A stretch of DNA of 64,000 nucleotides from an uncultured Clostridia bacterium. Its GTDB lineage: Bacteria; Bacillota; Clostridia; TANB77; CAG-508. The stretch lies in assembly GCA_944388745.1 (NCBI GenBank), contig CALXJZ010000001.1:5976-69975 (forward strand). Reading direction: 5' to 3'. Shown piece after piece: positions 22,556-55,553 of this stretch; the first letter of the stretch is position 1; every line of letters starts with the position of its first letter. A model generated the notes under the pieces. That model was not told the origin of the DNA. It saw nothing but the letters and a program-made list of their open reading frames with translations, and did not search any database. A program made the translations under genes and the position numbers.

Positions 22556-22624
22556 GTGCCGTCCCAAAACTAACCAAAAATGGTCACTCCGAACCTGTCC
22601 CCAAAGTGACCACAATGACCAAAA
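22556..22624 (-). repeat. Family-A dispersed palindromic repeat, copy 2 (inverted relative to copies 1 and 3)
   Basis: The reverse complement reads TTTTGGTCATTGTGGTCACTTTGGGGACAGGTTCGGAGTGACCATTTTTGGTTAGTTTTGGGACGGCAC. Lies between the SNF2 helicase stop and the 139-aa gene start. Confidence 0.8.
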
Positions 22625-25600
22625 TTAATTAAATAAATTCATTATTTCTTCTTTTGATAATTTGTTTATAAATGATGTTTTTGTGCTTAGCATATTGTCT
22701 ACTAACTCTGATTTTTTTTGTTGTAACTCATATATCTTTTCTTCTATTGAATTTTTTGTTATTAGTTTATATACTTGCACATTATTTTTTTGTCCAATTC
22801 TATAGGCTCTGTCTGTTGCTTGATTTTCTGTTGATATATTCCACCATGGATCATAATGTATTACCATATCAGCACCTGTTAGGTTTAATCCTGTTCCTCC
22901 TGCTTTTAACGATATCAAGAATATTTTTATATCTGAATTACTGTTAAATTCATCTACCATTCTAATTCTTTCATCTACTTTTGTGCTTCCTGTTAGTTTA
23001 TAATACTCAATATTTTTCTTTTTTAATTTTTCTTCTATTATTGGGAACATTGATGTATATCCTGAAAATAGTAATATTTTGTGTCCCCCTTCTATTGCAT
23101 CTTGTACTATTTCCATACATTGATTAAGTTTTCCGCTTCCTTCTTTATAGTCTTTGATAAACAGACTTGGATGGCAACATATTTGTCTTAATCTTGTTAA
23201 TACTGCTAATATTTGCATATGACTTTTTTCATATCCATTTAGTTCTATTTCTTGGAATAAGTCTTGTTTTGCTTGTGCCAAATATGTTAGATATATATTT
23301 CTTTGCTCTTCTTCCATTTCATTATTTAATACTGTTATTGTTTTATCTGGCAATTCTGTTAGTACTTCTTTTTTATTTCTTCTTAGTACAAATGGTTCTA
23401 TTAGCATTTTTAATTTTGCCATTGCTTTCTCATCATTGTCTTTTACTATCGGTACTTCATACATTGTTTTAAATTGCTTATATGTAAATAAATATCCTGG
23501 CATGATGAAGTCAAATATTGACCATAATTCTGCTAATGAGTTTTCTATTGGCGTTCCTGTTAACGCATATCTTGTGTCTGCTTTTATTTGTTTTATTGCT
23601 TTTGCATTTTGTGTATTACTATTTTTTAAATATTGTGCTTCATCTGCTATTATATATCTAAATTGATATTTCTTATCTTTATATAAATCAATATCTCTTT
23701 TTAATAGGTCATATGATGTAATTACTAAATCATAGTTTTCTATTTCTTTTATTTGTCTTTTTCTTTCTGATAAAGTTCCCCTAATTACTAATATTTTTAA
23801 ATCTTTTGCAAATTTGTTTGCTTCATTTTGCCAATTTAATGTCAGTGAACTTGGTGAAACTACTAAACTTGCTCTTTTAGTTTCTTTTTGAAAATTGCTC
23901 TTTTCTTTTTGTTCTATTAATTCATTTTTGTTCTCTTCAGAATTTTCTACTCCGTCTTTACTTCTGGCTTTTTCTACATAATCAACAATTACAGATAACA
24001 TTTGAATAGTTTTTCCAAGTCCCATATCATCTGCAAGTATTCCGCCAAATTCATATGAATCTAAAATCTTTAACCATTTGAATCCTGTTTTTTGATAATA
24101 TCTTAAAACATTATTTAAATTTTCTGGTATTTGGATCTCATCTTCTAAATGGTCTTTATCTAAATTATTTACTATTTCCCTATATTCACCATTTTTTGTT
24201 ACTTGAATTCCTTTTTTACTTTTTAATAGCTGGTTTAGATATAAACTTCTATAAGCTGGTAAAACCACTTCTCCTTTTTCTAGTTCTTTATAATCAATAT
24301 CCATTCCAGTAACAAGCTTGTCTAAAAAGTCAATCTCTTTATTATCTTCTAAGTTTAAAAAACTACCATCTTTTAGTCTATGATATTTCTTTTTTAATTG
24401 ATATTTTTCCATTATCTTTTGTAATTCTTTTATATCTATGTCTAAATCATTTAAATCTATTGATAATAAGTTATTTTCTACTTTTACTCCAATATTGCCA
24501 ATTTTTGCTTGTCTTATTTGTTTCGTCTTAAATTTTTCAGTAACTAAAACTTCAAATCTTTTCATATATACATTTATATCTTCTGTCAAAAATTCATAAA
24601 TTTTGTCATTATCAGGTAATATAAATCTTAGATTCTTTGTATCTAGCATAAATCCTGTTTTTCTAAATATGTTTAATGCTTTCGTCTCTTGAATCATGTT
24701 TCTTGGAAATTTTAGTTCTTGTTTTTCATCTAATGGATTAAATTCATTATTTTCATAACAAAATAGTACATCTGCAACTAGATAATCTTTCTCGTCAAAA
24801 TCTAAATATACCTTTACTACTAATTCTTTTGGTTTGTATTTTTCAATTTCTTCTTCTGATATATTTTCAATTGTTATTGCTGCTCTTACTTTTGGCATTA
24901 TTATTGAAAATAGCTGTGTTAATTCTTCTTTTCCCAAAACTATTTCTGTCATATAATTTTGCCTAAAAAATTCTAATAGCTTTAAATTGGCATTTTCAAA
25001 TTCTTTGCTACATCTATATATTTTTTTACTATCTAAAATGTATTTGTATTCTTTCCCTTTTAAAATACTAACATTAAATATTTCTACATTTGGCAAAATT
25101 ACATATTGATTATCTGATTTCTTTTTTAATGTAAAAGATATTTTTGGGTCTTCATTTGCAAATTCGATTTTTTCATTTAAATAGTCTCTTTGAAATTCTA
25201 CTTGTTTTCCTTGTAATATTTCAAATAAATCATCTATTCCACTATTTCCTAGCAAAATGCTTGTTTCACTTAATGCTTTTCCATAATAACGATAATTACT
25301 GTTTGAATTTGAATTTGCATATTTTATAATTTCTGCATATTTTAATAAAAAATCAAGTAATTTTTGACTTTCTTCATCAAACATTTCTTTAGTATGTACG
25401 AATTGTAGTTTTTCTCCATATTTATAAAATTCTTTTTCCATCATTCTTGTATAAAATTCTGATAGATTTTTTATCTTATACATTCTTTTGTTTCCAATTT
25501 TAAATTCTACTTTCATGTCTCCCAAAAATTTGTCATAGATTACTTTAGGCTCTAAATGAATTGTTCCTTTATTTTTTAATTCTTCATCATCACTATCAAT

Positions 25601-31118: not shown

Positions 31119-31282
31119 TTGTATTCCCCCATCATTAAAATCTTACAATTATATTTTGACATATTTTTTAATTATTTTCAAGTGTTTTTCTTATTATTTT
31201 ATTATACCAATACTTAAAAATATTAATCTCCTTACAGTTAATTGAATTTGCAGATTTTATTACAGTTATGTTACAATTTTCT

Positions 31283-34200
31283 TTACATATCTTCTACTAT
31301 AATTCTTTTTAGCATCAACATGTCTGTTACATCTACATTTCCATCTTCATTCATATCTGCTAATAATAAAGCTCGTCCTGTTAGTATCCATTCTGTTCTA
31401 CTTCCTGCAACTAAATGTCTCTTTAACATTAGTAAATCTGTTACATCTATCCTTCCATCTTGGTTTACATCTCCAATTTCTATTTTTTCTATGTTTATTA
31501 TTTCTACAATTGCCTGTATCTCATTTCCTGCTAAATCTTTTATTGTTATTGTTTCATTTGTGTTTTCACTATATTTTTTTGTTAGTATTTTTTTATTTTC
31601 TGATAGTATCCATCCTTCTACTTCTTGTATTTCTTCATTTGATGTTATTGTTACTATTACAGGATCTTCTGTTATTTCTTTTGTACTATACTCTATATTT
31701 ATTATTGGTGCTGTATTGTCAAAGTTAAATGCTTCACTTTTTGTTATTGTTTCATTTTCTAAATTATCTTCTGCATATATCCACAAATACCATTTTCCAT
31801 CTCCTGTACTTTTTGTGATTGTTTGTCCATTTTCAAAACTTTCTGTAAAACTTTCTTTTGTAGGCTCTGTCTCACTTTGTGTCCATTGGTATTTTAAACT
31901 TATATCTTTTACACCAACCTCTTCTTGGTTATCTGCTACACCTACTTTTACACTATATCCCTTTTGTGGATTTTCACTTCCATTAGGTTCAAATGTTATC
32001 TCTGGTCCTTCATTATCAATTATATATCTTTGTCCATTTTCTTCTGCGTATTTATGCCCTTCTGTATCTGACTTTGTATATATAATTAAATTATCGCAAT
32101 GTTCAAAAGCCTCACTTTCTATAGTTCCTACGTTTTCTGGAATAACTATGCTTTTTAAATCACTACAATCATAAAACGCTTGACTTCCTATCTTTGTTAC
32201 ACTAAGGGGAAGTATTATGTTTTTTAAACTGATACATCTTGAAAAAGCCATCGTCTCTATAGTAGTTACTCCTTCTGGTATTATTATACTTTCCAAATTA
32301 CTACATTCATCAAAAGTTGCATATTCTAATGTAGTTACACTATCTGGTATAATTACTTTTACCAAATTAGTACATTGATAAAATGCTCTTTCTTTTATAG
32401 AAATAACTCCTTCTGGAATACTATATTCACTTATATCTTCCTTTCCTTCTGGAAATTTTATTAACTCTGTTTTTTCTTTATTAAATAAGATTCCATTTTC
32501 ACTTATGTAATTATTATTATATGAATTCACATTAATACTTTGTAGATTGCTACATCCATAAAATACATCATCACCTATGCTTGTTACTCCTCGTGGAATT
32601 TCTATATTTGTTAAATTACTACATCTTGCAAATGCATTATTTCCTATAACAGTCACTGTATCTGGAATTACTATATTATTCAAATTTATACAATAATTAA
32701 AAGTATATGATTCTATGGTCTTTATATTATTAGATAAAACTACATTTTCTAAATTAATACAGTTAGAAAATGCTTCACTATCAATAACAGTTACACTATT
32801 TGGAATATTTATACTTTTTAAACTAGTACAGTAGGCAAATGCTCTAAAACCTATACTTGTTATACTTTCTGGAATATTTATATTTTTCAAATTAGTACAA
32901 TTATAAAACATACAATTACCTATAGTTGTTATTTTATTGTCTACAACTACATTTTCTATAAAAGTAGTATATTGATTATTGTGCCAGTCACTTTGTTCAT
33001 TATATTCCCAGTTTTTTATTTCTCCTTCTCCTGTTATTGTCAATGTTTTATCTTCTAAAGTCCATTTAGCAATTACACTTTCATCTTGATTTACTGATAT
33101 GTCCCAAGATTTTTCTTCTTCAATTTGATATTCTGTAGAAGTTTCATACGCTATTCCATTTAAAATATATGGTACTTTATGTTCTTCTGCATATTTATGC
33201 CCTATACTATCTGCTTCAACATATAATATTAATTGATTACATCCAGAAAATGCACTTTCCCCTATACTCGTTACACTAGTAGGAATATTTATATTTACTA
33301 AACTAGCACAGTTTGAGAAAGCTTGATTCTCTATACTTATTACTCCTTCTGAAATATTTACACTTCTTAAATTACTACAATTATAAAAAGTAGAATATTT
33401 TATATCTGTTACATTTTCTGGTATATTTATACTTTCTAAACTACTACAACCATAAAAGGCTAGCTCACCTATACTTGATACATTTTGAGGTATTTCTATA
33501 TTTTTTAGAATAGTACATCTTCGAAATGCATTTTCGCCTATACTTTCCATACTGTCTGGTAATCTTATACTTTCCAAAGTGTTACAATTTGCAAATGCAT
33601 AACTTTGTATTCTTTTTATACCTCCTGCAAAGTATATGTTTTGCAAATTATTACAATTATAAAAAGTATAATCTCTTATAGTTGTCACCTTGTCTGGAAT
33701 AGTTATGTTTTCTAAATTAGTACATCCATAAAATGAATAAGATTCTATGTTTTCAACACTGTTAGGTATAATAATACTTTCTAGGCTTGTATTACCATAA
33801 AAAGCATAATAATAAATAGTTGTTACAGTATCTGGTATTTCATATTCTCTTAAATCTTTCTTTCCTCCCGGAAAACAAATAAGTTCATCTTTTTCTTTAT
33901 TAAATAATACTCCATTTTCATCAATAAATTGATTATTATTTTCATTGACATTTATTTTCTCTAGATTAGTACAACCGGCAAAAGCTCCGTAACCTATACT
34001 TATCACATTAATCGGAATATCTATACTTGTTAAATTACTACATCCTGAAAATGCATAGTATGATATACTTGTTAAACTTTCTGGAATTTCTATACTCGTT
34101 AAATTATTACATCCTGAAAATGCATTCTCTCCTACTCTTGTTACTCCTTCCGGAATTTTTATTTTATCTAAACTACTACATTTTGAAAACGCACTATTTT

Positions 34201-34636
34201 TTATATTTATTACTCCAACTGGAATATTTATACTCTCTATACTACTACAATTTGAAAATGCATAACTTCCTATATTGGTTATACCTTCTTCTATACTTAC
34301 ACTTTCTATAATATTAGTATATTGTGTATTATGCCAATCTTCTTCTACATCATATTTCCAATCTTTCATTTCGCCTGTTCCAGATACTGTTAATTTCTTA
34401 TCTTCTAAAGTCCATTTGGCAATCACACTTCCATCTCCATTTGCAGATATATCCCATGTTTCTTCTCCTTTTATTTCATTATTTTTTGATATCACTTCTG
34501 TTGTATCTGTGCTTTCTGTTGGTGTATCTGCCGCAAATGACTCTTTTTGAAATAGAGGTGTTATTGGCATTCCTAATTGAAATATCATTGTTAATATTGC
34601 AATTATTGATATAGTTTTTCCTATTCCCTTTTTCAT
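31283..34636 (-). CDS. secreted BspA-type leucine-rich-repeat protein with C-terminal Ig-like and type-I dockerin module
   Basis: More than 25 repeats of ..SV.SIG..AF.GC..L.SI.IP... (BspA/Treponema-type LRR). C-terminal duplicated Ca-binding dockerin loops DVNQDGRIDVTDLLMLKRHL and DMNEDGNVDVTDMLMLKRII. Confidence 0.8.
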   Translation of the reverse strand: MKKGIGKTISIIAILTMIFQLGMPITPLFQKESFAADTPTESTDTTEVISKNNEIKGEETWDISANGDGSVIAKWTLEDKKLTVSGTGEMKDWKYDVEEDWHNTQYTNIIESVSIEEGITNIGSYAFSNCSSIESINIPVGVINIKNSAFSKCSSLDKIKIPEGVTRVGENAFSGCNNLTSIEIPESLTSISYYAFSGCSNLTSIDIPINVISIGYGAFAGCTNLEKINVNENNNQFIDENGVLFNKEKDELICFPGGKKDLREYEIPDTVTTIYYYAFYGNTSLESIIIPNSVENIESYSFYGCTNLENITIPDKVTTIRDYTFYNCNNLQNIYFAGGIKRIQSYAFANCNTLESIRLPDSMESIGENAFRRCTILKNIEIPQNVSSIGELAFYGCSSLESINIPENVTDIKYSTFYNCSNLRSVNISEGVISIENQAFSNCASLVNINIPTSVTSIGESAFSGCNQLILYVEADSIGHKYAEEHKVPYILNGIAYETSTEYQIEEEKSWDISVNQDESVIAKWTLEDKTLTITGEGEIKNWEYNEQSDWHNNQYTTFIENVVVDNKITTIGNCMFYNCTNLKNINIPESITSIGFRAFAYCTSLKSINIPNSVTVIDSEAFSNCINLENVVLSNNIKTIESYTFNYCINLNNIVIPDTVTVIGNNAFARCSNLTNIEIPRGVTSIGDDVFYGCSNLQSINVNSYNNNYISENGILFNKEKTELIKFPEGKEDISEYSIPEGVISIKERAFYQCTNLVKVIIPDSVTTLEYATFDECSNLESIIIPEGVTTIETMAFSRCISLKNIILPLSVTKIGSQAFYDCSDLKSIVIPENVGTIESEAFEHCDNLIIYTKSDTEGHKYAEENGQRYIIDNEGPEITFEPNGSENPQKGYSVKVGVADNQEEVGVKDISLKYQWTQSETEPTKESFTESFENGQTITKSTGDGKWYLWIYAEDNLENETITKSEAFNFDNTAPIINIEYSTKEITEDPVIVTITSNEEIQEVEGWILSENKKILTKKYSENTNETITIKDLAGNEIQAIVEIINIEKIEIGDVNQDGRIDVTDLLMLKRHLVAGSRTEWILTGRALLLADMNEDGNVDVTDMLMLKRIIVEDM

Positions 34637-34867
34637 GTGTAGTTCCCCTTTCTTTGTTACACTTTCTTTCTCTTAAATCTATTTTACTTTACTTATAATA
34701 TATAAATTTTTTTATACTTTGTAAATATAGCTTTTGCTTGGTAGCGTGAATGTATATTAATTCTACTTACGGCTACTATTCTTTTACTTTTTCTTTTTAA
34801 TTATTAAGTTTTTATTACATTTTTGTTTAATTATTATTTTTTTTTAATCTCTTAACATTATTATCAG

Positions 34868-34894
34868 CAAAAAAATAGACGTACCTCGTACGTC
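34868..34894 (-). terminator. rho-independent terminator after the second dockerin gene
   Basis: Minus-strand GACGTACGAGGTACGTC hairpin followed by TATTTTTTTGC. Confidence 0.65.
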
Positions 34895-34949
34895 CGTAGT
34901 CTGTTTTCTTTTGAAAACATATCATTTATTTTCAATTTTCATATTATTA

Positions 34950-37900
34950 TTACATGTTCTCTACAATTATTCTTTTTAACATCAACATATCTGTTATATC
35001 TACATTTCCGTCTTCATTCATATCTGATGCTAGGAAATAATTTCCTGTTAATATCCAATTCACTTTATTTCCTGCTACTAGATGTCTTTTTAACATTAAG
35101 AAGTCCGTTACATCTTTTTTTCCATCTTGATTGATATCTCCTATTACTATCTCCGGTTCTTCTTCAATATTATTAATCTCAATTATCACTTGCGTTTCAT
35201 TTCCAACTAAATCTTTTATAGTTATAGTCTCTTTTGTATTTGCACTATATTCTTTTGTCAATGTCTTTTTATCACTTGATAATGTCCAACCTTCTACTCC
35301 TTGTATTTCTTCATTTGATGTTATTGTTACTTTTACATTCTTTCTTGTTGGATTTTTTGTACTATAATTAACTGTTAAAATTGGTGATACTTCATCTTTT
35401 TCATTTACCTCTATTGTAAATGTTGAACCTTTTAAAATCCCTTCATTAATTGTAACCATTGCTTTTTTAGCTGTACTAGAATGATGTAAAGTTAATATTA
35501 TTTTAGTTCCATCTTCGTTCAATTTACAATTATATACCTGCAAACCTTCTTCAGAATATGCCTTACTTTCTTTATTTTGGGCTTGCAAAAATATTTTTGG
35601 CAAACTAATTTCTTCTCCTATCTCTCCATTTGAAATCAGTGCTTGATTACTTACATTATATCCACTTATATCTGATATTTCTTCTAGCACACTTACATCT
35701 GAAATACAATTATTCCACGCACCAAATTTCTTCAAATTCTTTAATTCTTTTACTACTTCTATATTATCTATTTTATTTCCTTCTCTTTCCAAACTTCCTT
35801 GTATTAATTTGTCAAAATATACTTCTTCTAAATTTTTCAAACTTGAAAGGTTAGTAATATCCGTCAAATTATTTGTTTGTAAATTTAAATACTTTAAATT
35901 TTCACAATCTAGTATAGGAATCTCTTTTAAATTATTATATTTTAAATCTAATCTTTCTAGTTCTATTAATCCATTTAATGGAGTAATATCTATTATCTTG
36001 TTAAAACTCAAATCTAAATTTGTTAATTTTTTTAAATTATTCAAACTACTAATATCTCTTATATTATTCCAACTTAAATTTAAAATCTCCAATTTTTCTA
36101 AATCCTTCAAACACTCAATATCAGTTATATTATTCCTTTTTAAATTTAATGTTGTTAAACTAGTCAAGTTTTCCAATCCTGTAATATTATTTATTTCTTT
36201 ATCTGATAAATCTAATTCTGTTATATATTCTATATCTTCTTCTAATATATTAATTTCCAAACTATCATCATTATTTTCATAAATAAATATTCCTATTTTA
36301 TCAAGCAAACTATTATAAAAGTTCTTATCTTTTAATGATATTACTATTTCATCTTTTTCATCATTAAAAACTGGATATCCATCATTTTTATTTTCAGAAT
36401 CCAAAACAAATACATCATCACTATTATTTAATAAATTGACAAAATCTTCTGTTTTCATAAAATTACTGTCTTTTGATATTATATTATTTAGAACATTCCC
36501 TGTATATGTTGATTTTAAATAATAACAATTGCTTATCGTTCCAGTGTTAGTATTTATAATATTTACAGTTTTAGCAGTATTAAGTTGACTAATAGTATAA
36601 CAATTTGTAATACTTCCATCATTTTGATATATTAATCCCATTACTTTTGGTGAAATATTTAATCCATCACGTACCTCACTTGAAATTTCTCCTTTTGAAT
36701 AACAATTATATATCTCACCTGAATAATTTAATACCGCTATACCAGCTGAAACAAGATTATATGCTCCTGTCCTACTAACACCATTTGATTTTCCAATAGA
36801 AGTAGTTACACTACCATAATTAGCACATCTATTTACAGTACCACATTGGTTGCTACTTATAATTCCTCCTGCCGAAACAACTCCCTTAATATTTCCAAAA
36901 TTGATACAATCTATAAGATTTCCCCCATTACTTTGGACAATCCCTGCAATTTCTGAAGCAGTATATTCATAATTTTCGGGATCTTCATTTTTATGATGAC
37001 TAATAATTTCTCCATAATTATTACATCTTTTTACAAAAACTTTTTCTTTTTTTCCTCCTGTTGTTGCAACTATTCCTGCAACTCCATCAGCACCTTCTAC
37101 ATTTCCATAATTATGACAATTTACTATGATTGCCATAGAATTTTCTGATACAATTGTGCTTTGCCCACTTATTCCTCCTACATCAGAATTGCCTCTATTT
37201 ATTGTAGATTCTATTTTTCCATAATTTAAACAATCTTTTATTCCACTAGTATTATCTCCACATATTCCTCCTATAAAACGTTTACCTCTTACGTTTCCAT
37301 TATTAATACAATCTATAACTATATTATCATATTGTGTAGTTTTATTACATCCTACGATTCCTCCAACATACTCTCTATTTTCTATCCTAGCTTCATTTAT
37401 ACTCTCTTTTACAATTCCGTTATTTAATCCTACTATTCCTCCCACAAAAGTTAACTCGTCTGTATCTATTATTACATCAGAATTATTATTACACTTAAAA
37501 ATAGTTCCAGAATTTTTACCTACTATTCCTCCTACATAATTATACGATATATAAGCGTTTAAACTAACTGAACCGTTACTAACACTATCTCTCATTTCTC
37601 CACTATTACTTCCTACAATACCACCAATATTTGTCTCAGTCCCATGTATATCAAGCATAGTCTCTACATTTTCTATAATTCCTCTATTTGTTCCTACTAA
37701 TCCTCCTACACCCCAATCGTTAGCTTCATTTCCAATAACTGTTCCAGAAGATATATTTAAATTTTTTATAGTTCCATTGTTATCTGAAAAGAAACCTTTA
37801 CCCAAATTATTGCTATCACTTATATATAAATTACTTATTATATGGTTTCTTCCATCAAATGTACCTTCAAAAGCATAAGAATCATTTCCAATTGGTGTCC

Positions 37901-38153
37901 ATTGATTATTTTCATTACCTTCTAAATCAATATCAGCAGTTAATACAACTGTCTTTTCTTCATAGGTATTTCCATTATTAACATCATTAGCAAATGCAAT
38001 TAATTCTTCCTTGGTTGAAATTTCTAAATCCGCTGTTATTTCATCCGCTGCCAACACTTTTATATTTAACTCTGATATCATTGGTAATATTAATTGAAAT
38101 ATCATTGTTAATATTACAATTATTGATATAGTTTTTCCTATCCCTTTTTTCAT
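34950..38153 (-). CDS. secreted GLUG/beta-helix-repeat plus internalin-type LRR protein with C-terminal Ig-like and type-I dockerin module
   Basis: Signal peptide nearly identical to that of the 31283..34636 gene. Gly-rich parallel beta-helix/GLUG-like repeats (GGIVG.N.G.I..C.N). Listeria-type 22-aa LRRs (LNLSWNNIRDISSLNNLKKLTNLDLSFNKI). Dockerin DINQDGKKDVTDFLMLKRHL and DMNEDGNVDITDMLMLKRII. Confidence 0.75.
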   Translation of the reverse strand: MKKGIGKTISIIVILTMIFQLILPMISELNIKVLAADEITADLEISTKEELIAFANDVNNGNTYEEKTVVLTADIDLEGNENNQWTPIGNDSYAFEGTFDGRNHIISNLYISDSNNLGKGFFSDNNGTIKNLNISSGTVIGNEANDWGVGGLVGTNRGIIENVETMLDIHGTETNIGGIVGSNSGEMRDSVSNGSVSLNAYISYNYVGGIVGKNSGTIFKCNNNSDVIIDTDELTFVGGIVGLNNGIVKESINEARIENREYVGGIVGCNKTTQYDNIVIDCINNGNVRGKRFIGGICGDNTSGIKDCLNYGKIESTINRGNSDVGGISGQSTIVSENSMAIIVNCHNYGNVEGADGVAGIVATTGGKKEKVFVKRCNNYGEIISHHKNEDPENYEYTASEIAGIVQSNGGNLIDCINFGNIKGVVSAGGIISSNQCGTVNRCANYGSVTTSIGKSNGVSRTGAYNLVSAGIAVLNYSGEIYNCYSKGEISSEVRDGLNISPKVMGLIYQNDGSITNCYTISQLNTAKTVNIINTNTGTISNCYYLKSTYTGNVLNNIISKDSNFMKTEDFVNLLNNSDDVFVLDSENKNDGYPVFNDEKDEIVISLKDKNFYNSLLDKIGIFIYENNDDSLEINILEEDIEYITELDLSDKEINNITGLENLTSLTTLNLKRNNITDIECLKDLEKLEILNLSWNNIRDISSLNNLKKLTNLDLSFNKIIDITPLNGLIELERLDLKYNNLKEIPILDCENLKYLNLQTNNLTDITNLSSLKNLEEVYFDKLIQGSLEREGNKIDNIEVVKELKNLKKFGAWNNCISDVSVLEEISDISGYNVSNQALISNGEIGEEISLPKIFLQAQNKESKAYSEEGLQVYNCKLNEDGTKIILTLHHSSTAKKAMVTINEGILKGSTFTIEVNEKDEVSPILTVNYSTKNPTRKNVKVTITSNEEIQGVEGWTLSSDKKTLTKEYSANTKETITIKDLVGNETQVIIEINNIEEEPEIVIGDINQDGKKDVTDFLMLKRHLVAGNKVNWILTGNYFLASDMNEDGNVDITDMLMLKRIIVENM

Positions 38154-38399
38154 GTATAGCTTTCCTCCCTTTATACTACTTTCCTATAAAATATTTTTTT
38201 CTTACTTATACTATATAAAGTTTCTCACACTTTGTAAATATGCTTTTTTTCTAGCATTATGAATATATGATATTATAACTTACGGATACTATCTTTTTGC
38301 TTTCTTTTTAATTTTTTTAAATTTTTATTACAATTTTATTTCACTACAATTATTTATACTATTATTTTAAATAAAACTCCGTATTTTAACCTATTCATC

Positions 38400-38428
38400 T
38401 TGAAACTCCAACATTTTTGTTATATAAT
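38400..38428 (+). promoter_or_regulatory. sigma-A promoter for leuS (TTGAAA, 17 nt, TATAAT)
   Basis: cTTGAAActccaacatttttgtTATATAAT, about 50 nt upstream of the leuS SD/ATG. No T-box leader recognised. Confidence 0.55.
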
Positions 38429-44389: not shown

Positions 44390-44948
44390 TTAGGTCAAAT
44401 TTTTATATTCATTAATAACTAATTTTAAATCTTTTATAAAATCAATTTTCTTAGTTTCATCTCTTAAAAGTGCAGCCGGATGCCATGTTGGCATATATTT
44501 AATTCCTTTTTTCTCAACCCATTTTCCTCTAGATTGTGTTATGCCATACTCATGTCCTAATATATTTTTTAATGCCACACTTCCGCAATAAAACAATTAT
44601 TTTAGGTTTAACTAAAATAACTTGGTTTCTTAAATAATTCATACAGCTATCGGCTTCATCTTGTTCTGGATTTCTATTTGAAGGTGGTCTACATTTAACA
44701 ATATTTGCAATATATACTTCGTCACGCTTTAATCCGACCATTTGAAAGGCCAAATTCATAAGTTGTCCTGCACGACCTACAAAAGGTTCTCCTAATCTAT
44801 CCTCGTCTGCTCCTGGACCTTCTCCTATAAACATTAAATCCGCATTTTTATTTCCAGTTCCAAAAACTATGTTATGCCTTCCTTTATATAATTTACACTT
44901 ATTACAATTAATTATTGAATTTTCTAGTTCTTCCCATGTTTCAAACAT
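44390..44948 (-). CDS. udg: family-4 uracil-DNA glycosylase, interrupted by a single +1 frameshift near 44585
   Basis: [24 protein letters not shown] (family 4 UDG) in ORF 44550..45002. The C-terminal part (...[11 protein letters not shown]...) is in the overlapping ORF 44390..44596. Removing one C from ttgCggaag on the coding strand restores ...[18 protein letters not shown].... True start is MFETWEEL at about 44948. Confidence 0.7.
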
Positions 44949-44951
44949 TTT

Positions 44952-45018
44952 GCTCACTTTGGTCACTTTGGGGACAGGTTCGGACTGACCATTTTTGGTC
45001 ATAAAAGGGACGCCACTT
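44952..45018 (+). repeat. Family-A dispersed palindromic repeat, copy 3
   Basis: GCTCACTTTGGTCACTTTGGGGACAGGTTCGGACTGACCATTTTTGGTCATAAAAGGGACGCCACTTTTC, ending 4 nt upstream of the udg ATG. It explains the spurious N-terminal extension [18 protein letters not shown] in the ORF track. Confidence 0.8.
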
Positions 45019-48186: not shown

Positions 48187-49035
48187 TTATTTTTCAATCA
48201 TAATAAAAGCTGCACATAAACCATATCCCTGCTTCTCAACTCTAAATGAATGTATCAAATCTGAGTGACACACACTACATATTCCACTATCTACAATATT
48301 TTCTTCCTTTAAGCCAACTTTTTGCAAAATTATTTTATTTATCAAAACTGTATCTATATTCCATTTCTCATTTGGAATTTTCTCCTGTATTATATCACAT
48401 AATTGGTCATTTTTTAAGTCTTTATATTCATTTTCAAACATTTCTTTAACATCTCTATCTACTTCAAAATGACATTTCCTAATACTTGGACAAATACAAC
48501 ATATTATATCTTCTGGATTACAACCAAATTCATTTTTCATTTTTTCAACTGTTTTAACTGAAATCCTTTGAATTGTTCCTTTCCAACCAGAATGTGTATT
48601 TGCTATTACTTCCTTTACTGGGTCATAAAATAACAGTAATATACAATCTGCATTTGTAGTCTCCAATATAATATCTTTCTTGTTTGTAATTAGTCCATCT
48701 GTTTTAGAATAATCGCTTGTTTCAAATTCTGGTCTATCCTTATACCTCTTATTTTTTACAACTTTTATTTCGTCTGTATGGTCTTGTGCAGGCTTAATAA
48801 TCTTTGTATAATCATCATTTACTTCTTCAAAAAATTTCTTATATGTATTAATATTTTTCTCATATCTTTCTTTTGGTAACTCTTTTTTATCAGGAGTCAA
48901 AGTTCTAAAATCGTTGTTAATTCCTAAGGTATATGCATGTTTTATTTTATCTTTATATTCCAATAATCTCCTAAACTGCAAATATTCAATTCCATTCTTT
49001 TTAACATGAATTACATTTTCATTTGATAAATCCAC
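48187..49035 (-). CDS. pgeF: peptidoglycan editing factor PgeF / YfiH (DUF152, purine nucleoside phosphorylase LACC1 family)
   Basis: ILLLFYDP...HSGWKGT...CICPSI..CHFEV conserved motifs. Apparent GTG start with an AAGGAGG SD. Confidence 0.8.
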   Translation of the reverse strand: MDLSNENVIHVKKNGIEYLQFRRLLEYKDKIKHAYTLGINNDFRTLTPDKKELPKERYEKNINTYKKFFEEVNDDYTKIIKPAQDHTDEIKVVKNKRYKDRPEFETSDYSKTDGLITNKKDIILETTNADCILLLFYDPVKEVIANTHSGWKGTIQRISVKTVEKMKNEFGCNPEDIICCICPSIRKCHFEVDRDVKEMFENEYKDLKNDQLCDIIQEKIPNEKWNIDTVLINKIILQKVGLKEENIVDSGICSVCHSDLIHSFRVEKQGYGLCAAFIMIEK

Positions 49036-52000
49036 TGTTTTCCTCCTTTATACATGTCTCATTGAGAAACGTCCCCATTGAGACATTTTGTGGAACATAG
49101 TTATAATTATTATCCTTATTTTGCGGATTAAAACCACAAATTGCTTTATATTCACAATACTCACAAGGAGTTTTACCCTTTTTATTATATGGTTTTATTT
49201 CTATATTTCCATTAAATATCTCTTTTGCAATCTGTTTTATAGTTATATTTATATAATCTTGTAAAACTTTAAATTCTTCTTTACTCACACCATTTGTCCA
49301 CTTTTTATTTACTGAACCTGACTGCGTAATTGCTGCTGGTACTAGCTTTGAGCTTCCAGATGATAATGTATTATCATTCATCTTTATTATTTTTACATCT
49401 GCGACTATAAGCCCTTTCATCTTAAAGTTTTTTTGTATCATATTTTCAATTTCTTCTTCAGATATCCTTTTATCAGCTTTAATCATTTGCTCTAATAATG
49501 AAAAATAAAATATTCCCGCAGGCATAATATCTTCTTCTTTGCAAATTGCATCCATATATGTCAATAGCTGAATTTGCAAACCTGCATACACTTCATTTAA
49601 ATCTATATTCTTGCTTGAAGATTTATAATCTATAATTCTTAAATATTTCCCATCTTCTTCGTCTGCTGTATCAATTCTGTCAATTTTTCCTGTAATTTCA
49701 ACTCTTTTTCCATCTTCTAACTCTAAAATTATAGGTTTATACTTTCCATTTTTGCCGAATTCAACTTCTGTTCCTTCTATACTAAAATCACTATGTATTA
49801 TTGTTTGAATTATATATTTCAAGGCTTTTGATACAATTCTTTTTAATCTTCTTACTAATACTTTATATTTTACTGTTGCTGTAAACATGTAGTTTTTAGA
49901 ATCTTCTAAGTTTTCTTCTATTATCTCTGACACTAATTCAAATATTTTATCTTCTTCTAATTCTGCTAGATTAATATTTTCTTTTCTAGTTGTCTCAAAA
50001 AATTCATCAATTGTTTCATGCATAAATGAACCTGTATCAAAGGTATGTATTTTTAGTTCTTCCTTTTCTTTTAGTTTTAAGCCATATTGCAAATAATATG
50101 AAAATGGACAACTTCTATATTTTTCTAATCTTGATACACTTGTATTTAATGTATTTCCATATAATTTTTCAATATTTTCTTTCTGAAGTTTTTCTGGTTG
50201 ATTTGTATAAAACAATGCCTGTAAGTCCTTATTTAAAACTTCCTTCCAGTTGATTTTGTGTTTATAGTATTTATATATTAAATACCATATATCTTCAATT
50301 TTTTCCTTGTTTTTTAATCTTGCAATATTTTGTAATAGCTCTTCATATGTAACTTTTGCATTTGCAATTTCATATTTTTTCTCTATTACATCACTTTCTT
50401 CTTTCAAATTTGGATATATTCTTTTTAACTTATTTATGTATGTAGAAGGTCTTAATGATTTTCCTTCTTTATCTGTTGAACAATATGATATATATATGCT
50501 ATTTTCTGCTGTTGTAAATGCTTTATATATGTTAAAGTTTTCTTCATATAGATTTTCAACAGTTCCTTTTGCAATTTCTAGCCCTTCATTTTTTAGATAT
50601 TCTCTATCTTCATCATTGAAAAAGCCTTCATCTTTGTTCACACTTGGAAATTGTCCATCATTTACACCAATTAAAAATACTGTTTTTACTCTATGACTCC
50701 TTGAACGGTCAACGTCTGCAAATGTTACTTGGTCTTGTGTTCCTGGTATTTTCCCAAGCCCACTATTTTGCATACCAACTTTTAATATTTTGCTATATTG
50801 GTCTAATGTCATTTTGTCATCTGCAAATGTTAACACAATTTCATCCATAATTTCTAGTATTAGTTTATAACTTTGGATATATTCTTCAGCTAATTCAATA
50901 AGTTCTTTTTCTTTTAACTCTTTTACCTTTTGCTCAATTTTCTCTTCAATATTTTGCTCTTGTAAAAATTCATATAAACATCTACATATATTTTGTGCTG
51001 TTTTTTCTTCGTTAATTTGTTGTTTCAATTTTATCAGTGGTTCTACTATTTGCTTTCTTAATTCCTCTAATCTTTCAATTTCTTGAACTTTATCCACATT
51101 TTGTTTATCATATGTGAATTCTTTTTTCCATTTATTTTGTTTTATTCCCCATTTGGTACAATAATTTTCTAATTTAAATATTTCGTCTTTTTCAATATCA
51201 AAAAATCCAGATTTTAAATAGAAAAATACACTTTCTGTTGTGAAATTTTTATTTAATATCTCAATAATTGATAATATGTATTGTGTAATTATATTTTGAT
51301 TTAAATCTCTTTTTTCATCAATAAATACTGGTATATTATATTTTAAAAATATACTTCTTACCAATGATGAATATTCTTCTATATTTTTGGTTATTATTGC
51401 AATATCTTTATATCTTAACCCTTCATCTCTTACTAATCTTGTGATTTGTCTTGCTACTTGCTCTATTTCACTATATGGATTTTGGGCTAAAAACATATTG
51501 ATATTTTGGTTTTCTTTTTGATATTTTTGTATTTTTATATTCCCTATATTATCACTTAAATGTTGTAATTCTTCTGTTTTAAATCTATATTGTTTTTTCA
51601 AACAGACTGGTTCTTCTAACTTAAATCCATTTTCATCTATTAAATTGATAATCTTTTTTAAAGTTTGTTTATTAGAATAAAATATATCTGTATCAGGATT
51701 TGTATTCATTTCTAAGTTATCTATACACATTGTGATGTTTACTTGTTTTGCCTGTTCAATTAATTTTTTTATAACTTCATATTCTTGTCCGAGTAAATCC
51801 TGCAAATTCATCTAAATATATTATGCTATCTTTAATAAAATTTGTTTGTTCAACATTTTGACTAAGTATTGTTAATAAATCTGTATCTTCTATGTATTTT
51901 CCTTGTATTTGCTCTTCAAATTTTTCATAGATTAATATCATATCTGATAATTTTGCTTGCAAATAATTGTCTTCTGTTTTTTCTTGTTCTTCTTTTAAAT

Positions 52001-52396
52001 TTTCAATTGTAATTCCATGTTTTTTTAATTCTTTTATTGTATTCATACTTAATTCAATATTTTCATCTGATTTTCCTAGAAATTTTAAATCTTTTTTGTA
52101 CTTATTTAATATAGAATATATAAGTATTGCTTTTCCACATTTTGAAATTTGAGTTTTATTTGCTCCACCTATCTCATTTATAACTCTATATGCTAACCTA
52201 CTTAATGTTACAACTTCTGCATTTAATACTGCGTCTCGATTTACTGCTTCCATTAGCTTCTTTTCAGCAGTAAATGAAAATTGCTCTGGTGTTATCATAT
52301 ATATTTTTTTCTCTTTATCTATTAAATTTGCTATCTCTTTAAAGCAAAACTCACTTTTTCCTGTTCCTGGTTTGCCATATATAATTCTTAAACTCA
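49019..52396 (-). CDS. addB: ATP-dependent helicase/deoxyribonuclease subunit B (AddB/RexB), interrupted by a single +1 frameshift near 51791
   Basis: N-terminal ORF (51777..52412) has P-loop IIYGKPGTGKSE. The 930-aa ORF 49019..51811 carries the C-terminal RecB-nuclease/Fe-S Cys cluster (CEYCEYKAICGF). Combined length about 1140 aa. Removing one C from actCggaca restores a single frame. Probable TTG start at about 52396 after GGAGGTG. Confidence 0.8.
49053..49087 (-). repeat. Family-B REP-like hairpin repeat (ATGTCTCA | TTGAGAAACGTCCCCAT | TGAGACAT)
   Basis: Perfect 8-bp inverted arms around a conserved GGGGACGTTTCT-containing loop. Lies in the last codons of addB and just upstream of the pgeF RBS. 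Confidence 0.8.
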
Positions 52397-52410
52397 AATT
52401 TTTCACCTCC

Positions 52411-52443
52411 ATGTCTCATTGGGGACGTTTCTAAGTGAGACAT
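52411..52443 (+). repeat. Family-B REP-like hairpin repeat (ATGTCTCA | TTGGGGACGTTTCTAAG | TGAGACAT)
   Basis: Same element in the opposite orientation, immediately 5' of the addB start. Followed by a second small hairpin TGTCCCATTTTGGACA. Confidence 0.8.
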
Positions 52444-52469
52444 TTTGTCCCATTTTGGACACATCTTCT

Positions 52470-53336
52470 CTATGCTTCTCGCCTCCAATAAAATAAATAT
52501 TGTTGTGCTAACCCTGCCAAATCACCAAATTTCTCTTGAGCTATTTTTTCAATTTGTTTTTTATTTACCTTTGTTTCATCTTCGTTATGGATATATAAAT
52601 CATTCATAACTCTTCTAACCCAAACATCAATTGGGAAAACTTCAAATCTTTTCAAATCTGAAAATAGCAAAATACAATCTGCAACCTTTGGTCCAACTCC
52701 TGATAAACTTAGTAATTGTTCTCTTACTTCCATAGTATTTGGATTGTTCTTCATTTCTTCTAAATCCACTTTTTTATCCAATATCATCTGTGTTGTTTCA
52801 TATAATCTTATATCTCTAAATCCTAGTCCTAACTCTCTATATTCTTGAACTGTAACATCTTTTAAATCTTTAGCAGTTGGAAAAGTATAATATTTTGTAT
52901 CATTCCATTCTATCTCTTTTCCATATTTTTTTGATAATCTTTCTATAATTCCTTTGATTCTTGGAATATTGTTATTTGCAGAAATTATAAAAGATATTAT
53001 TGTTTCCCATAAATCTTGATTTAATATCCTTATTCCCTGTCCATATTCTATACTTTTCTTCATATTTTCATCTATTTTTTCTAGCTTACTCTTTATTTTT
53101 TGATAATCTCTGTTTAAATCAAAATATTTTTCTACTGTTTCTTTTATATCTTCTTTACAAATCCCTTTGAAGATAACTTCATTTCCTGTTTTGGCAACGT
53201 TTAAAACATTATCTCCAAATACACCTGTATAGCTTCCATCTTGCTGTTCATTCCATCTAAAGCATTGTCCACACTCAAATATATCTTTTAATTCAAATGA
53301 ATCTATATTACTTATTTTATATTCTTGTTCTCTCAT
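52470..53336 (-). CDS. ogg: 8-oxoguanine DNA glycosylase / DNA lyase (Ogg, HhH-GPD superfamily)
   Basis: HhH-GPD motif LLSLSGVGPKVADCILLF with catalytic Lys and Asp. About 288 aa, matching the Clostridial/archaeal-type Ogg. Confidence 0.8.
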   Translation of the reverse strand: MREQEYKISNIDSFELKDIFECGQCFRWNEQQDGSYTGVFGDNVLNVAKTGNEVIFKGICKEDIKETVEKYFDLNRDYQKIKSKLEKIDENMKKSIEYGQGIRILNQDLWETIISFIISANNNIPRIKGIIERLSKKYGKEIEWNDTKYYTFPTAKDLKDVTVQEYRELGLGFRDIRLYETTQMILDKKVDLEEMKNNPNTMEVREQLLSLSGVGPKVADCILLFSDLKRFEVFPIDVWVRRVMNDLYIHNEDETKVNKKQIEKIAQEKFGDLAGLAQQYLFYWRREA

Positions 53337-53434
53337 TTTTTATTCTTCCTTTTATATTCTTTTTTCACATACATTATACAATAAATTCGCACTTTTGAAC
53401 ATAGTTTTTAACAAATCTATCTCCAAATAAAAAA

Positions 53435-53466
53435 ATGTCGCATAAGAAACGTCCCCATTGCGACAT
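53435..53466 (-). repeat. Family-B REP-like hairpin repeat (ATGTCGCA | TAAGAAACGTCCCCAT | TGCGACAT)
   Basis: Arms carry a compensatory T:A to G:C change relative to copies 49053 and 52411. Overlaps the stop codon of the YitT gene. Confidence 0.8.
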
Positions 53467-54335
53467 TACTCTTTTTTAAATCCCAATCCCACTACTTCTC
53501 TTGAATTCGTTATTATTATAAAAGATTTAGGATCTATTTTTTTTGCAATCACTTTTATTCGATTCACATCTCCTCTTGAAGCTGCACACATTAAAATTAA
53601 CTTGTCTTCATTTGTATACATCCCTTTTCCATATATTCCTGTTGCTCCTCTTTGTACCTTTTCTCCAACTTCTTCTGCTATCTCCTCGGTTTTATCCGAT
53701 ATTATTAATAATAACTTTGTAAAATTTATTCCTTCAAATAATATATCAATTATTTTTCCCATTAAATATATTGAAATCGCTGAATACAAGCCTATTTCTA
53801 TCTCTCTGAAAAATACAACATTTAATGCCACAATTATAATATCTATTATCATAATTAAATTTCCCACTTTAACATTTGGTTTATATTCTTTTACAATAAA
53901 ACTTACTATATCACTTCCACCTGTTGATGAATTTACTTTTAATATTATTGCAGTTCCTAGACCTAACAAAATTCCTCCATATATACATGCTAAAAACCTA
54001 TCATTTGTTAAAGGTTCAAATTTGTCAAAAAAGTCAATGAAATATGATAAAGCAATCGTTCCTATTAATGATTTTACAAAAAAACTTTTTCCCACCTTAA
54101 AAAATGCCATCATAAATAGCGGAACATTTATTAAAAGTATCATTGTTCCCATTGGAATTTTTAATAGATAATATGTTATTGTAGCAATACCAGCTACTCC
54201 ACCTGAAGATAATTGGTTTGGTAATAGAAATAGCGAAACTCCTAATGCCATTATTAATGCTCCTATTATTGTTAAAACTATTTCTATTATTATTTTCGGT
54301 ATATTATATTTTTCTTCTATATGCATAAAAACCAC
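53466..54335 (-). CDS. YitT-family membrane protein (DUF161/DUF2179)
   Basis: N-terminal TM region with GGxAGI..I motif (SSGGVAGIATITYYL) and a C-terminal DUF2179-like domain; 289 aa. Confidence 0.75.
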   Translation of the reverse strand: MVFMHIEEKYNIPKIIIEIVLTIIGALIMALGVSLFLLPNQLSSGGVAGIATITYYLLKIPMGTMILLINVPLFMMAFFKVGKSFFVKSLIGTIALSYFIDFFDKFEPLTNDRFLACIYGGILLGLGTAIILKVNSSTGGSDIVSFIVKEYKPNVKVGNLIMIIDIIIVALNVVFFREIEIGLYSAISIYLMGKIIDILFEGINFTKLLLIISDKTEEIAEEVGEKVQRGATGIYGKGMYTNEDKLILMCAASRGDVNRIKVIAKKIDPKSFIIITNSREVVGLGFKKE

Positions 54336-54379
54336 CTTTACCTTATTATTGGTAAATAGTGGCTTTTTTATTCACAAAG

Positions 54380-54498
54380 ATGTCGCGTTGGGGACGTTTC
54401 TCATGCGACATTCTTTTAGATTATAGCATAATACTAATTTTTAACACTCAATGTCGCATGAGAAACGTCCCCAACGCGACACGCCCCCAATGAGACAT
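54380..54498. repeat. BIME-like composite: two identical 32-nt family-B units in inverted orientation (54380-54411, 54451-54482) plus a truncated third unit (54483-54498)
   Basis: ATGTCGCGTTGGGGACGTTTCTCATGCGACAT and its exact reverse complement are separated by 39 nt. Followed by GCCCCCAATGAGACAT, which overlaps the radical-SAM gene stop. Confidence 0.8.
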
Positions 54499-55553
54499 TA
54501 TTCCTCTAAGAAATCATGATATGTCTTAGTAATTTCAATTTTTGATTTTCCTGGTTTAATGTTTTCATCTTGTTTTAATACTAAATCAACATCATATGTA
54601 TCTTTTAATTTAATAACATTTTCTTTTTTATGTCCAATTACATTATTACTATCAACTGGATTTACTGTTACTTCTACTTCTTTTACTTTTACATTTAATT
54701 TCTTTATTTTAGCAACTATTGCGTCATACCATAAACCTGATTCTACTAATTGTCTAAATGCTGGATGATATGGACCTGCAACTACCTCACTATTTTTTTC
54801 TTCTGGTGATGTTATTTCATCTGTATTTTGTAATCCAACTCTTATTACTTCAATTTTCTTTTTTACAAACATTGATACTAATTCTTTACAAGTTTCTACT
54901 GCTTGTGCTAATGGTAATGGTTGATATTCTCCGTTTTCATATTCTTTCTCTAATTTTGTATTTTTTACAACTAAAACGGGATAGATTCTTACCATTTTAG
55001 GTCTTAATTTGATTAATGCTTTTGCTGTATTAATTTCATCAATTTTTGTACTTTCAGGTAATCCTACCATCATTTGATGACCTAGCTGAAATCCATATCT
55101 TTTTATTAATTTAGATGCTTTTTTTACATCTTCAAAAGTGTGTCCCCTATTTGCTCTTTTTAATATATAGTCATTTGCTGATTGTACTCCTAATTCTATT
55201 GTTTTGACTTTGTAATTCTTTAATCTCTTTAGAGTTTCTTTATCTATACAATCAGGTCTTGTTGAAATTCTTATGCTTTCTACTTTTCCTGCTTTTATAT
55301 ACTCATATGCAACTTCTAATAATTCTTCTTGTTTTTCTTTTTCTATTGCTGTAAAACTTCCTCCAAAAAAAGCTATTTCTATTTGTACATCTTCATTTTT
55401 TATGCTTTTAAGGTAATCTTCTATTATATTTTTTGCTTCTTCTTTAGTCATATTTTTCTTTTGACCACTAATTGATTTTTGGTTACAAAATATGCAATCA
55501 TTTGGACATCCTAAATGTGGTACAAATATTGGGATAATATATAACTTTTTCAT
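54498..55553 (-). CDS. radical SAM protein, TIGR01212 (YhcC/ELP3-like) family
   Basis: CPNDCIFC (CxxxCxxC) near the N-terminus; about 350 aa. Confidence 0.75.
   Translation of the reverse strand: MKKLYIIPIFVPHLGCPNDCIFCNQKSISGQKKNMTKEEAKNIIEDYLKSIKNEDVQIEIAFFGGSFTAIEKEKQEELLEVAYEYIKAGKVESIRISTRPDCIDKETLKRLKNYKVKTIELGVQSANDYILKRANRGHTFEDVKKASKLIKRYGFQLGHQMMVGLPESTKIDEINTAKALIKLRPKMVRIYPVLVVKNTKLEKEYENGEYQPLPLAQAVETCKELVSMFVKKKIEVIRVGLQNTDEITSPEEKNSEVVAGPYHPAFRQLVESGLWYDAIVAKIKKLNVKVKEVEVTVNPVDSNNVIGHKKENVIKLKDTYDVDLVLKQDENIKPGKSKIEITKTYHDFLEE

Follow-up and report, generated by a model that had tools for sequence, protein, structure and literature searches.

A probable REPIN/BIME-type doublet of REP-like repeats in uncultured gut Clostridia, with a RAYT/TIRYT-type partner in related genomes

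The composite repeat located between a radical-SAM gene and yitT in the 64,000-nucleotide stretch of DNA analysed here (the window) is probably a REPIN/BIME-type doublet built from REP-like units, for which related genomes encode a partner of the RAYT/TIRYT type. In uncultured gut Clostridia, these units make up a dispersed and polymorphic family of mobile repeats in intergenic DNA, and in related genomes the same units flank an apparently single-copy class-2 HUH-Y1 transposase gene (RAYT/TIRYT-like) next to radA. Insertion, loss and inversion are backed by direct comparative evidence. Recognition and cleavage of single-stranded hairpins by the Y1 enzyme would be expected by analogy and from the anatomy of the system. 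The REP-like family appears to be undescribed; a literature search for the motif GGGGACGTTTCT returned no paper. A first-pass annotation of this DNA had interpreted the composite in similar terms, and its interpretation is largely supported, with the corrections given below.

The doublet and its surroundings

A repeat search of the window revealed two 32-nt arms at 54381–54412 and 54450–54481, which are 100% complementary and separated by a gap of 37 nt. The first-pass annotation had described two exact inverted units at 54380–54411 and 54451–54482, separated by 39 nt. The perfect inverted repeat is real, but its true limits are shifted by one base: at the earlier coordinates 31 of the 32 positions pair, and the outermost A (54380) is opposite a C (54482). 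In terms of the repeat unit, the left arm (54380–54411, plus strand) is a full unit of the G subtype, ATGTCGC-GTTGGGGACGTTTCTCAT-GCGACAT, with a predicted hairpin of its own of 7–8 bp and a loop of 16–18 nt. The right arm (54451–54482) is a G-subtype unit on the minus strand (GTGTCGCG...GCGACAT), which differs from the left arm at the outermost base only. The spacer between them (54412–54450) is AT-rich; because the palindrome runs one base into it on either side, 37 of its nucleotides are unpaired.

Adjacent to the right arm, a half unit is found at 54483–54498 on the minus strand. Its sequence, ATGTCTCATTGGGGGC (plus-strand letters GCCCCCAATGAGACAT, the reverse complement), contains the 5' stem arm and the start of the loop of a T-subtype unit, and corresponds to the 5' half of the T-subtype units at 52411 and 49086 with one or two mismatches. 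As it is the 5' part of the TGTCTC subtype, the half unit is not derived from the neighbouring arm. The truncated third unit proposed earlier thus exists, but it is of a different subtype from the arms and is absent from the orthologous locus L069. Its first A (54498) is the third base of the TAA stop codon (54498–54500, minus strand) of the radical-SAM gene (54498–55553), so the repeat block abuts this gene and the half unit overlaps the stop codon.

The composite had been placed exactly between the yitT start and the radical-SAM stop; the left end of the doublet is 45–54 nt from the yitT start. The interval contains an older, conserved hairpin followed by a U-run (54326–54376, minus strand; −17.9 kcal/mol, z = −3.8), with the yitT ribosome-binding site in its 3' arm. 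This hairpin is part of the pre-insertion spacer and not of the repeat, and is kept in relatives that do not have the doublet.

Fold prediction for 54375–54500, the check suggested in the first-pass annotation, yielded −42.6 kcal/mol (z = −13.1) for DNA and −70.9 kcal/mol (z = −12.9) for minus-strand RNA. The predicted structure is one long hairpin of 101–103 nt. The hairpin that had been anticipated is confirmed, but its size had been overestimated at about 120 nt; the half unit remains outside. A 30-nt unit pattern matched the window three times with at most three mismatches, against an expectation of 0.00 from 100 shuffles.

An independent metagenome scaffold (L190), retrieved via the exact YitT protein, is 100% identical to the window over the whole region, which means that the doublet is not an assembly artefact. 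The same doublet is carried by L069, a 91%-identical orthologue. An apparent insertion of about 100 nt in addB of L190 was discarded, as the stretch is a scaffold gap of Ns. Scans of 53300–54700 detected no terminator-like sites, and promoter-like sites at chance level. Over the whole window, Rfam gave no matches reaching the gathering threshold; in a local E-value scan, matches resembling microRNA precursors and a Wolbachia sRNA were far below threshold and driven by the long hairpin alone.

The repeat unit and its distribution

The unit is an imperfect palindrome of 32–33 nt, present in the 64 kb as five full copies and the half copy, or about one per 12 kb. The copies outside the doublet are solo. 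A T-subtype unit (49054–49086, minus strand) is located at the 3' end of addB, upstream of the ribosome-binding site of the next gene. Between ogg and addB there is a two-module element (52411–52467, plus strand), in which a T-subtype unit (52411–52443) is joined to a second module, TTTGTCCCATTTTGGACACATCTT. A G-subtype unit (53435–53466, minus strand) is situated directly past the yitT stop codon. Their stems are of two subtypes, TGTCGC...GCGACA and TGTCTC...GAGACA; the change that distinguishes them is compensated.

When species-representative genomes were scanned for exact matches to ATGTCNCNNTGGGGACGTTTCT, at least 107 stretches were identified; among the matches listed, all are from about 30 metagenome-assembled genomes (MAGs) of uncultured Clostridia, Clostridium or Bacillota from animal gut. 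The window and the 107 loci listed contain 184 cores, with 153 of the 184 outside crude ORF calls and 119 of the 184 units being solo. When 131 distinct units are aligned, the loop shows little or no variation in its columns. In the stem, the paired columns 7 and 29 contain G:C in 54 units, C:G in 27 and U:A in 21, and are unpaired in 28. Overall, 91.6% of cells are paired, against 86.6% in shuffles (none of 500 reaches the observed value) and 21–52% when the partner is slid.

In the complete solo element the second module is directly 3' of the unit and reads TTT-TGTCCCATTTGGGACA(C/T)ATCT (47 cases). The trinucleotides at the 5' flank of the unit are TAA, AAA, TTT, AGA and similar; no GTAG or GTGG tetranucleotide is found at this position. 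A second repeat family of the window has TTTGGGGAC in common with the unit of the doublet.

Doublets at related loci

The window and the 107 loci listed contain 33 close pairs of units, 19 of which are convergent like that in the window and 14 tandem; there are no divergent pairs. The paired, BIME-like organisation suggested in the first-pass annotation, which had proposed a comparison with other paired occurrences, is thus recurrent, although its units do not carry the GTAG tag of E. coli REPs. At least five convergent pairs are present in BRZ_GP__bin67, the MAG of the closest relative, and one doublet is present in the window itself. The core-to-core spacing is 59–62 nt, as in the window, for 11 of the 19 convergent pairs. 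Their arms are also very similar to each other, with zero or one mismatch in 16 of the 19, versus 1–14 for tandem neighbours.

The spacers of the doublets are AT-rich and weakly related between loci. Even in the orthologous doublet of L069, which has identical arms, the spacer has diverged. At two unrelated loci (L001 and L044), the doublets including their spacers are 92% identical over 103 nt, with 600-nt flanks on either side that show no homology; therefore, at least some doublets have been copied whole. Spacer homology between non-orthologous doublets reaches z = 6.5 for this pair and z = 3.8 for L043 and L044, with most comparisons at z = 1–3. As the homology is marginal for most of them, we do not claim a common master copy of all doublets. 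A candidate spacer flip between L018 and L058 was rejected, the two loci being collinear over 1303 nt and differing only in contig orientation.

None of the 19 doublets is bordered by a target-site duplication; 13 lack any flanking direct repeat, and the longest such repeat is 4 nt. Short direct repeats are in fact rarer at the 19 doublets than at random positions. Elements of the IS200/IS605 type have a strong lagging-strand bias. The orientation of the units with respect to GC skew, used as a proxy for the replication strand, is biased 64:40, which is too weak to favour or disfavour a lagging-strand mechanism.

Turnover between related genomes

Comparison with four close relatives (L011, L082, L069 and L067, 90–95% identical to the window) revealed filled and empty sites. 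L011, L069 and L067 do not contain the two-module element at 52411, and ogg overlaps addB in these three. At filled sites, an imperfect duplication of 12–13 nt (TTTTTCACCTCC and CTTCTCGCCTCC) brackets the insertion; it leaves the stop codon of ogg intact, as well as the ribosome-binding site of addB. The unit at 53435 is missing in L011 and is of the T subtype in L082; the filling of the post-yitT site by different subtypes in close relatives suggests that it was targeted more than once or that one copy replaced another. In relatives in which YitT is only 60% identical, this position is taken by a variant unit. The site at 49054 contains an additional 99 nt in L069 and 255 nt in L067.

The doublet at 54380 is present in L069 and in L010. 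As far as the left arm, the latter is a 98% match to the window, and its contig ends within the spacer. The part of the spacer that can be compared is inverted, being the reverse complement of the window spacer at 25 of 27 positions. The inversion polymorphism that the first-pass annotation had proposed to look for is thus observed.

Synteny of the radical-SAM gene and yitT is conserved in 67 of 80 more distant relatives from the human gut, with YitT 53–73% identical. The doublet is absent in all 11 of the syntenic distant loci whose spacer was read. Nine of these spacers contain only the conserved hairpin and U-run ahead of the yitT start; in L109 and L110 the spacer contains an unrelated insertion of about 450 nt. 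The empty distant spacers and the retention of the hairpin at 54326–54376 in the window lead us to conclude that the doublet is a lineage-specific insertion between the stop codon and the older hairpin.

A candidate partner enzyme

Searches by tblastn with E. coli RayT and IS200-type queries located an ORF between inverted units. It encodes a Y1 protein of 257–289 amino acids and is found at nine loci, corresponding to eight MAGs, as L091 and L020 adjoin each other on a single contig. The protein scores 60–64 bits on Pfam Y1_Tnp (cut-off 23). Its best NCBIfam model is REP_Tyr_transpos, at 69–72 bits, below the 80-bit equivalog cut-off, and the NCBIfam IS200 model gives 20–24 bits (cut-off 55). 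The HUH motif HVHL and the motif YIHQNP are invariant in an alignment of 20 sequences, the latter agreeing with the class-2 Y1 signature Y---NP (Quentin et al. 2018, PMC6006769). The only match of the 20-sequence profile in the PDB is E. coli TnpA-REP (4ER8), at a marginal E-value of 0.048; a PDB search with a single sequence gave nothing relevant.

The Y1 proteins extend about 120 residues past the core. For these C-terminal 120 residues, no Pfam domain scored above cut-off; a weak match to HTH_26 (E = 0.0037, 17.9 bits, cut-off 22) was found in one of two proteins. The enzyme is a putative member of TnpA-Y1 subclass 2.1. Proteins of this subclass are long, with an HTH-like C-terminal extension, and have been equated with the TIRYTs (Quentin et al. 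2018, PMC6006769). RAYT Group 1 of Bertels et al. 2017 (PMC5581495) falls into it almost completely (291 of 292 sequences).

The gene is bracketed in a characteristic manner: a unit and second module, about 170 nt, the gene, and again a second module and unit. The flanking units are convergent, as they are in the doublets, and were present on both sides of the gene in all genomes examined. The chromosomal context is fixed, consisting of mreB, a MiaB-like radical-SAM gene, a 108-aa ORF, the Y1 gene, radA and disA. The gene appears to be single-copy in related genomes and is not repeated in the genomes sampled. The first-pass annotation had linked the paired repeats to RAYT activity. This link gains substance from the inverted copies of the doublet's unit that bracket the Y1 HUH gene in related MAGs, but no Y1 or other RAYT gene is located within the 64-kb window. 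BRZ_GP__bin67, the MAG with the closest orthologue (L069), encodes the enzyme (L091 and L020), and the gene is also found in metagenomes of the project that yielded the scaffold identical to the window. Judging from close relatives, the source genome may well contain the gene too.

The protein family has 1137 members at E ≤ 1e-5, for which the only source name seen was 'transposase'. Contigs of about 1 kb carry many of the members, a pattern that would result if the flanking repeats interrupted assembly. The only other transposase match was an IS200-like fragment in L041, which is unrelated to the units.

Stop codons and gene context

In 37 of 176 units (21%), an ORF of 80 codons or more terminates directly before the TGTC. 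Other stop offsets nearby account for 0–7 cases each, and no such abutment occurs at the other end of the unit. Within the window, the unit at 53435 abuts the yitT stop and the half unit abuts the radical-SAM stop; in L069 the doublet itself adjoins a stop codon. The 3' flank of the unit is TTT in 131 of 176 units, and a TTTT tail follows most solo units but not the doublet. With respect to co-directional flanking genes, 65 units point with transcription and 32 against. Some units adjoin a ribosome-binding site or supply the start codon of radA. In E. coli, REPs within 15 nt of a stop codon have been reported to lower translation of the upstream gene. The gene context described here may arise from targeting, from selection at the RNA level or from loss of spacer sequence in compact genomes.

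Comparison with known systems

The arrangement resembles the REPIN-RAYT systems of Pseudomonas and enterobacteria (Bertels and Rainey 2011, PMC3116915). In both, an inverted REP pair folds together with its short spacer into a single long hairpin, drift affects the spacer but leaves the arms near-identical, numerous singlets exist beside the doublets, and an apparently single-copy Y1 gene occupies a fixed chromosomal position flanked by the same repeats. The host differs, being an uncultured Clostridia lineage with 27% G+C. The unit also has another design, with a large conserved loop on a short covarying stem instead of a long stem with a 5' GTAG. Further differences are the second module of the solo element, TGTCCCATTTGGGACACATCT, and the exact adjoining of stop codons by one fifth of the units.

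With the REP and BIME sequences of E. coli, the repeats share the organisation as mosaics of inverted palindromic units and the location in intergenic spacers of co-directional genes, but there is no GTAG and there are no Y, Z1 and Z2 unit types. The HUH and Y---NP catalytic motifs align with those of E. coli TnpA-REP (RayT, 4ER8). Compared to that protein of 165 amino acids, the one described here is 90–120 residues longer at its C-terminus. Canonical REPs are marked at the base of their hairpin by a conserved 5' GT[AG]G (PMC6006769). This tag is what the RAYT of E. coli reads.

The long class-2 Y1 protein with its C-terminal extension is what the enzyme has in common with TIRYTs, subclass 2.1 and RAYT Group 1. 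TIRYTs, or TIRtrons, are RAYT-like genes flanked by inverted repeats containing GGGGWSAS, and some have moderately abundant repeat families that occur as dimers or clusters (Di Nocera et al. 2013, PMC3733652). Here too, inverted repeats with a run of G residues flank the gene: the motif in the unit, GGGGACGT, agrees with GGGGWSAS at six of eight positions. The window's second repeat family has GGGGACAG, which agrees at all eight. For subclass 2.1 genes, no REP-like sequences were found nearby (PMC6006769), and for RAYT Group 1, which has been reported in Clostridia, the flanking 16-mers occur about 12 times (Bertels et al. 2017, PMC5581495). In contrast to the descriptions of such systems, in which repeats are missing or moderately abundant and subclass 2.1 genes have no REP-like hairpins nearby, the repeat that flanks the gene here is a hairpin unit present about every 12 kb in the window.

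IS200/IS605 elements and their transposase-less derivatives resemble the present system in their Y1 HUH enzyme, in having subterminal hairpins that differ between the two ends, and in inserting beside a short sequence without target duplication. They differ from it in that the enzyme found here is far below the IS200 cut-off, its gene is not repeated in the genomes sampled, and the units have no strong strand bias.

Proposed mechanism and alternative explanations

Transposing what is known of such systems to the doublet, we propose the following mechanism. In a sub-lineage of uncultured gut Clostridia, the doublet would have been inserted behind the stop codon of the radical-SAM gene, ahead of the older hairpin in the yitT leader. 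In single-stranded DNA the unit would fold, presenting its conserved loop, TTGGGGACGTTTCT, on a stem that is free to covary; the Y1 enzyme may recognise this loop, and then cut and rejoin single strands without generating target duplications. The doublet would be a transposase-less miniature of the unit-RAYT-unit arrangement. If it is moved or copied as one long hairpin, the arms would stay identical and the spacer would drift, and recombination or strand switching between the identical arms could flip the spacer. The half unit, outside the hairpin, would be the remnant of a unit of a different subtype. At the RNA level, a hairpin of about −70 kcal/mol past a stop codon in the radical-SAM/yitT transcript may be an obstacle to 3' exonucleases, cause ribosomes to stall at termination or recruit RNase III, effects that have been reported for E. 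coli REPs.

Some of the observations count against this mechanism. Y1 transposition normally proceeds without target duplication, and the element at 52411 is bracketed by an imperfect duplication of 12–13 nt. The REP_Tyr_transpos score below cut-off, the marginal match to 4ER8, the units without a GT[AG]G tag, the weak orientation bias of 64:40 and the absence of a Y1 gene from the window are also unfavourable. The stop-codon abutment, the TTTT tail and the 65:32 direction could be due to selection at the RNA level instead of targeting by a transposase. In an alternative explanation based on such selection, the units would be primarily host RNA elements, hairpins at 3' ends (weak terminators, mRNA stabilisers or modulators of translation termination) that are kept in place by selection and have only an incidental or historical connection with the Y1 gene. 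The 37 of 176 units directly past a stop codon, with neighbouring offsets at 0–7, would agree with this, as would the TTT at the 3' flank, the 65:32 direction and the variant unit that is found after yitT where YitT is only 60% identical. We nevertheless consider it unlikely. A consensus scan of 53300–54700 gave no terminators, the loop of the unit is 16–18 nt with just four G:C stem pairs, one third of the units are oriented against transcription and the doublets are symmetric. Site occupancy varies among genomes that are 90–95% identical, the combination of a conserved loop and a covarying stem argues for a protein that recognises the sequence specifically, and no genome examined has the Y1 gene without these units at its flanks.

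Measuring about 100 nt in all and ending in perfect inverted repeats of 32 nt, the composite also has the appearance of a classical MITE, that is, a deletion derivative of a DDE insertion sequence mobilised in trans, and one solo insertion does have a duplication of about 12 nt. However, we rejected a DDE-type MITE as very improbable because target duplications are absent at all 19 doublets. Furthermore, the 119 solo units among 184 are unexpected for MITE terminal repeats, each arm is itself a hairpin with covariation, and the sole transposase found between inverted units is the Y1 HUH enzyme. Just as improbable is an explanation in which a nucleoid or regulatory protein binds to the units as arrays of sites, with TTGGGGAC as half-site, and the units spread by recombination instead of transposition. 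Half motifs of the form TGTCNC-N-TTGGGGAC do recur in tandem and as the second module (47 cases), and the second repeat family of the window also contains TTTGGGGAC. The precise insertions, when compared with the empty sites, however, require DNA breakage, and the only candidate binding protein found is the Y1 enzyme.

Within the preferred reading, a REPIN/BIME-type doublet with a Y1 partner, a more far-reaching and quite tentative proposal can be made. Class-2 Y1 transposases of the long type with a C-terminal extension have been described as domesticated, single-copy genes that lack a REP population. In gut Clostridia, such an enzyme might maintain a dense population of two-module hairpins placed, to the nucleotide, past stop codons, amounting to a single-strand DNA insertion system that reshapes the 3' ends of genes, and sometimes their ribosome-binding sites or start codons.

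Implications

REPIN-RAYT systems are studied as long-lived, vertically inherited replicators, with Proteobacteria supplying the examples known in detail. In Clostridia, the only RAYT group to have been reported is Group 1, whose genes have been described as single-copy and unable to duplicate, with modestly repeated flanking 16-mers (PMC5581495). The repeats described here point to a comparable system in low-G+C, uncultured gut Firmicutes that may follow a different recognition logic, in which the loop is conserved, the stem is free to vary and the GTAG tag is missing. Different from known REP systems are the host phylum, the putative loop-based recognition, the two-module solo element and the exact abutment of stop codons. 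The filled and empty sites, the spacer inversion and the candidate enzyme are all directly testable.

The repeats also have practical consequences. As the units overlap stop codons, ribosome-binding sites and even start codons, they affect gene calling. They also break MAG assemblies, with many Y1 genes on short contigs and one contig ending inside the doublet.

Variation and placement of the repeat units

The site 3' of the yitT stop codon (window 53435-53466) is occupied differently in genomes that are 90-95% identical. The window and two related loci (L069 and L067) carry a G-subtype unit, L082 has a T-subtype unit followed by an intact module 2, and L011 (BRZ_GT__bin15) is empty. Such differing occupancy at this level of identity implies either that one copy has replaced another at this position or that units have inserted there repeatedly.

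Some doublets in related loci are much longer, perfect palindromes (L034 4985-5196, L066 4130-4285 and L042), the longest reaching about 210 nt. They contain extra GGGAC-type modules, or their palindrome runs on into what would otherwise be flanking DNA; these features hint that doublets are created or extended by hairpin-templated copying.

The unit on the 3' side of the Y1 transposase gene overlaps the apparent start of radA (L020 about 515-560, L192 3340-3375 and L047 about 3368). Its end reads GCGAC-ATG-GCAAAAAG, so its last bases provide what appears to be the ATG with which radA starts. Other genomes have the ribosome-binding site GGAGG immediately 3' of this unit.

A second repeat family

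A second family of repeats, with copies of about 70 nt that are 84-85% alike, is present in the window at 4190-4258 (plus strand), 22555-22625 (minus strand) and 44947-45017 (plus strand), and outside it at L001 4045-4062 and L028 5936-5953. The hairpin has the form GGTCA[C/G]-TTTGGGGACAGGTTCGGA-[C/G]TGACC and is followed by ATTTTTGGT...GGGACGCCAC. The family contains an exact match to GGGGWSAS, the motif reported in the repeats flanking TIRYT genes (PMC3733652), which suggests that it is another Y1-associated family in the same genome.

The yitT leader and the upstream spacer

Directly 5' of the yitT start, on the minus strand, lies a conserved hairpin with a U-run (window 54326-54376), the 3' arm of which contains the yitT ribosome-binding site, AGGTGG. 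The predicted RNA fold has an energy of −17.9 kcal/mol (z = −3.8), and human-gut relatives without the doublet have the same arrangement of hairpin and U-run before yitT. The hairpin may be the terminator of the upstream gene or an element of translational control.

In L109 and L110, the spacer between the radical-SAM gene and yitT holds about 450 nt of unrelated inserted sequence (about 3550-4000), the ends of which form a long inverted repeat (CTTCAAGTAATACATATTTTTTAACTTAATAT / ATATTAAGTTAAAAAATATGTATTACTTGAAG). In L011 (7846-8000), similarity to the window ends a short way 5' of the hairpin in the yitT leader and gives way to different sequence; judged from this alignment, the radical-SAM/yitT junction of this genome is rearranged or interrupted.

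Other features of the window

The addB gene (window 49019-52412, minus strand) is split near 51785 into two overlapping open reading frames of 211 and 930 amino acids, the shorter of which carries the Walker A motif, by a one-base frame change within ...DEFAGFT/GQEYEV.... Since the frame change is common to four related species (L011, L082, L069 and L067), which differ there by substitutions without insertions or deletions, and is also found in L190, an independent, identical metagenome scaffold, it is conserved and no sequencing error.

Long, diverged direct-repeat families, with periods of 69, 390 and 777 nt, among others, are located inside very large minus-strand open reading frames (window 4500-10300 and 31200-38400), which look like genes for repetitive surface proteins.
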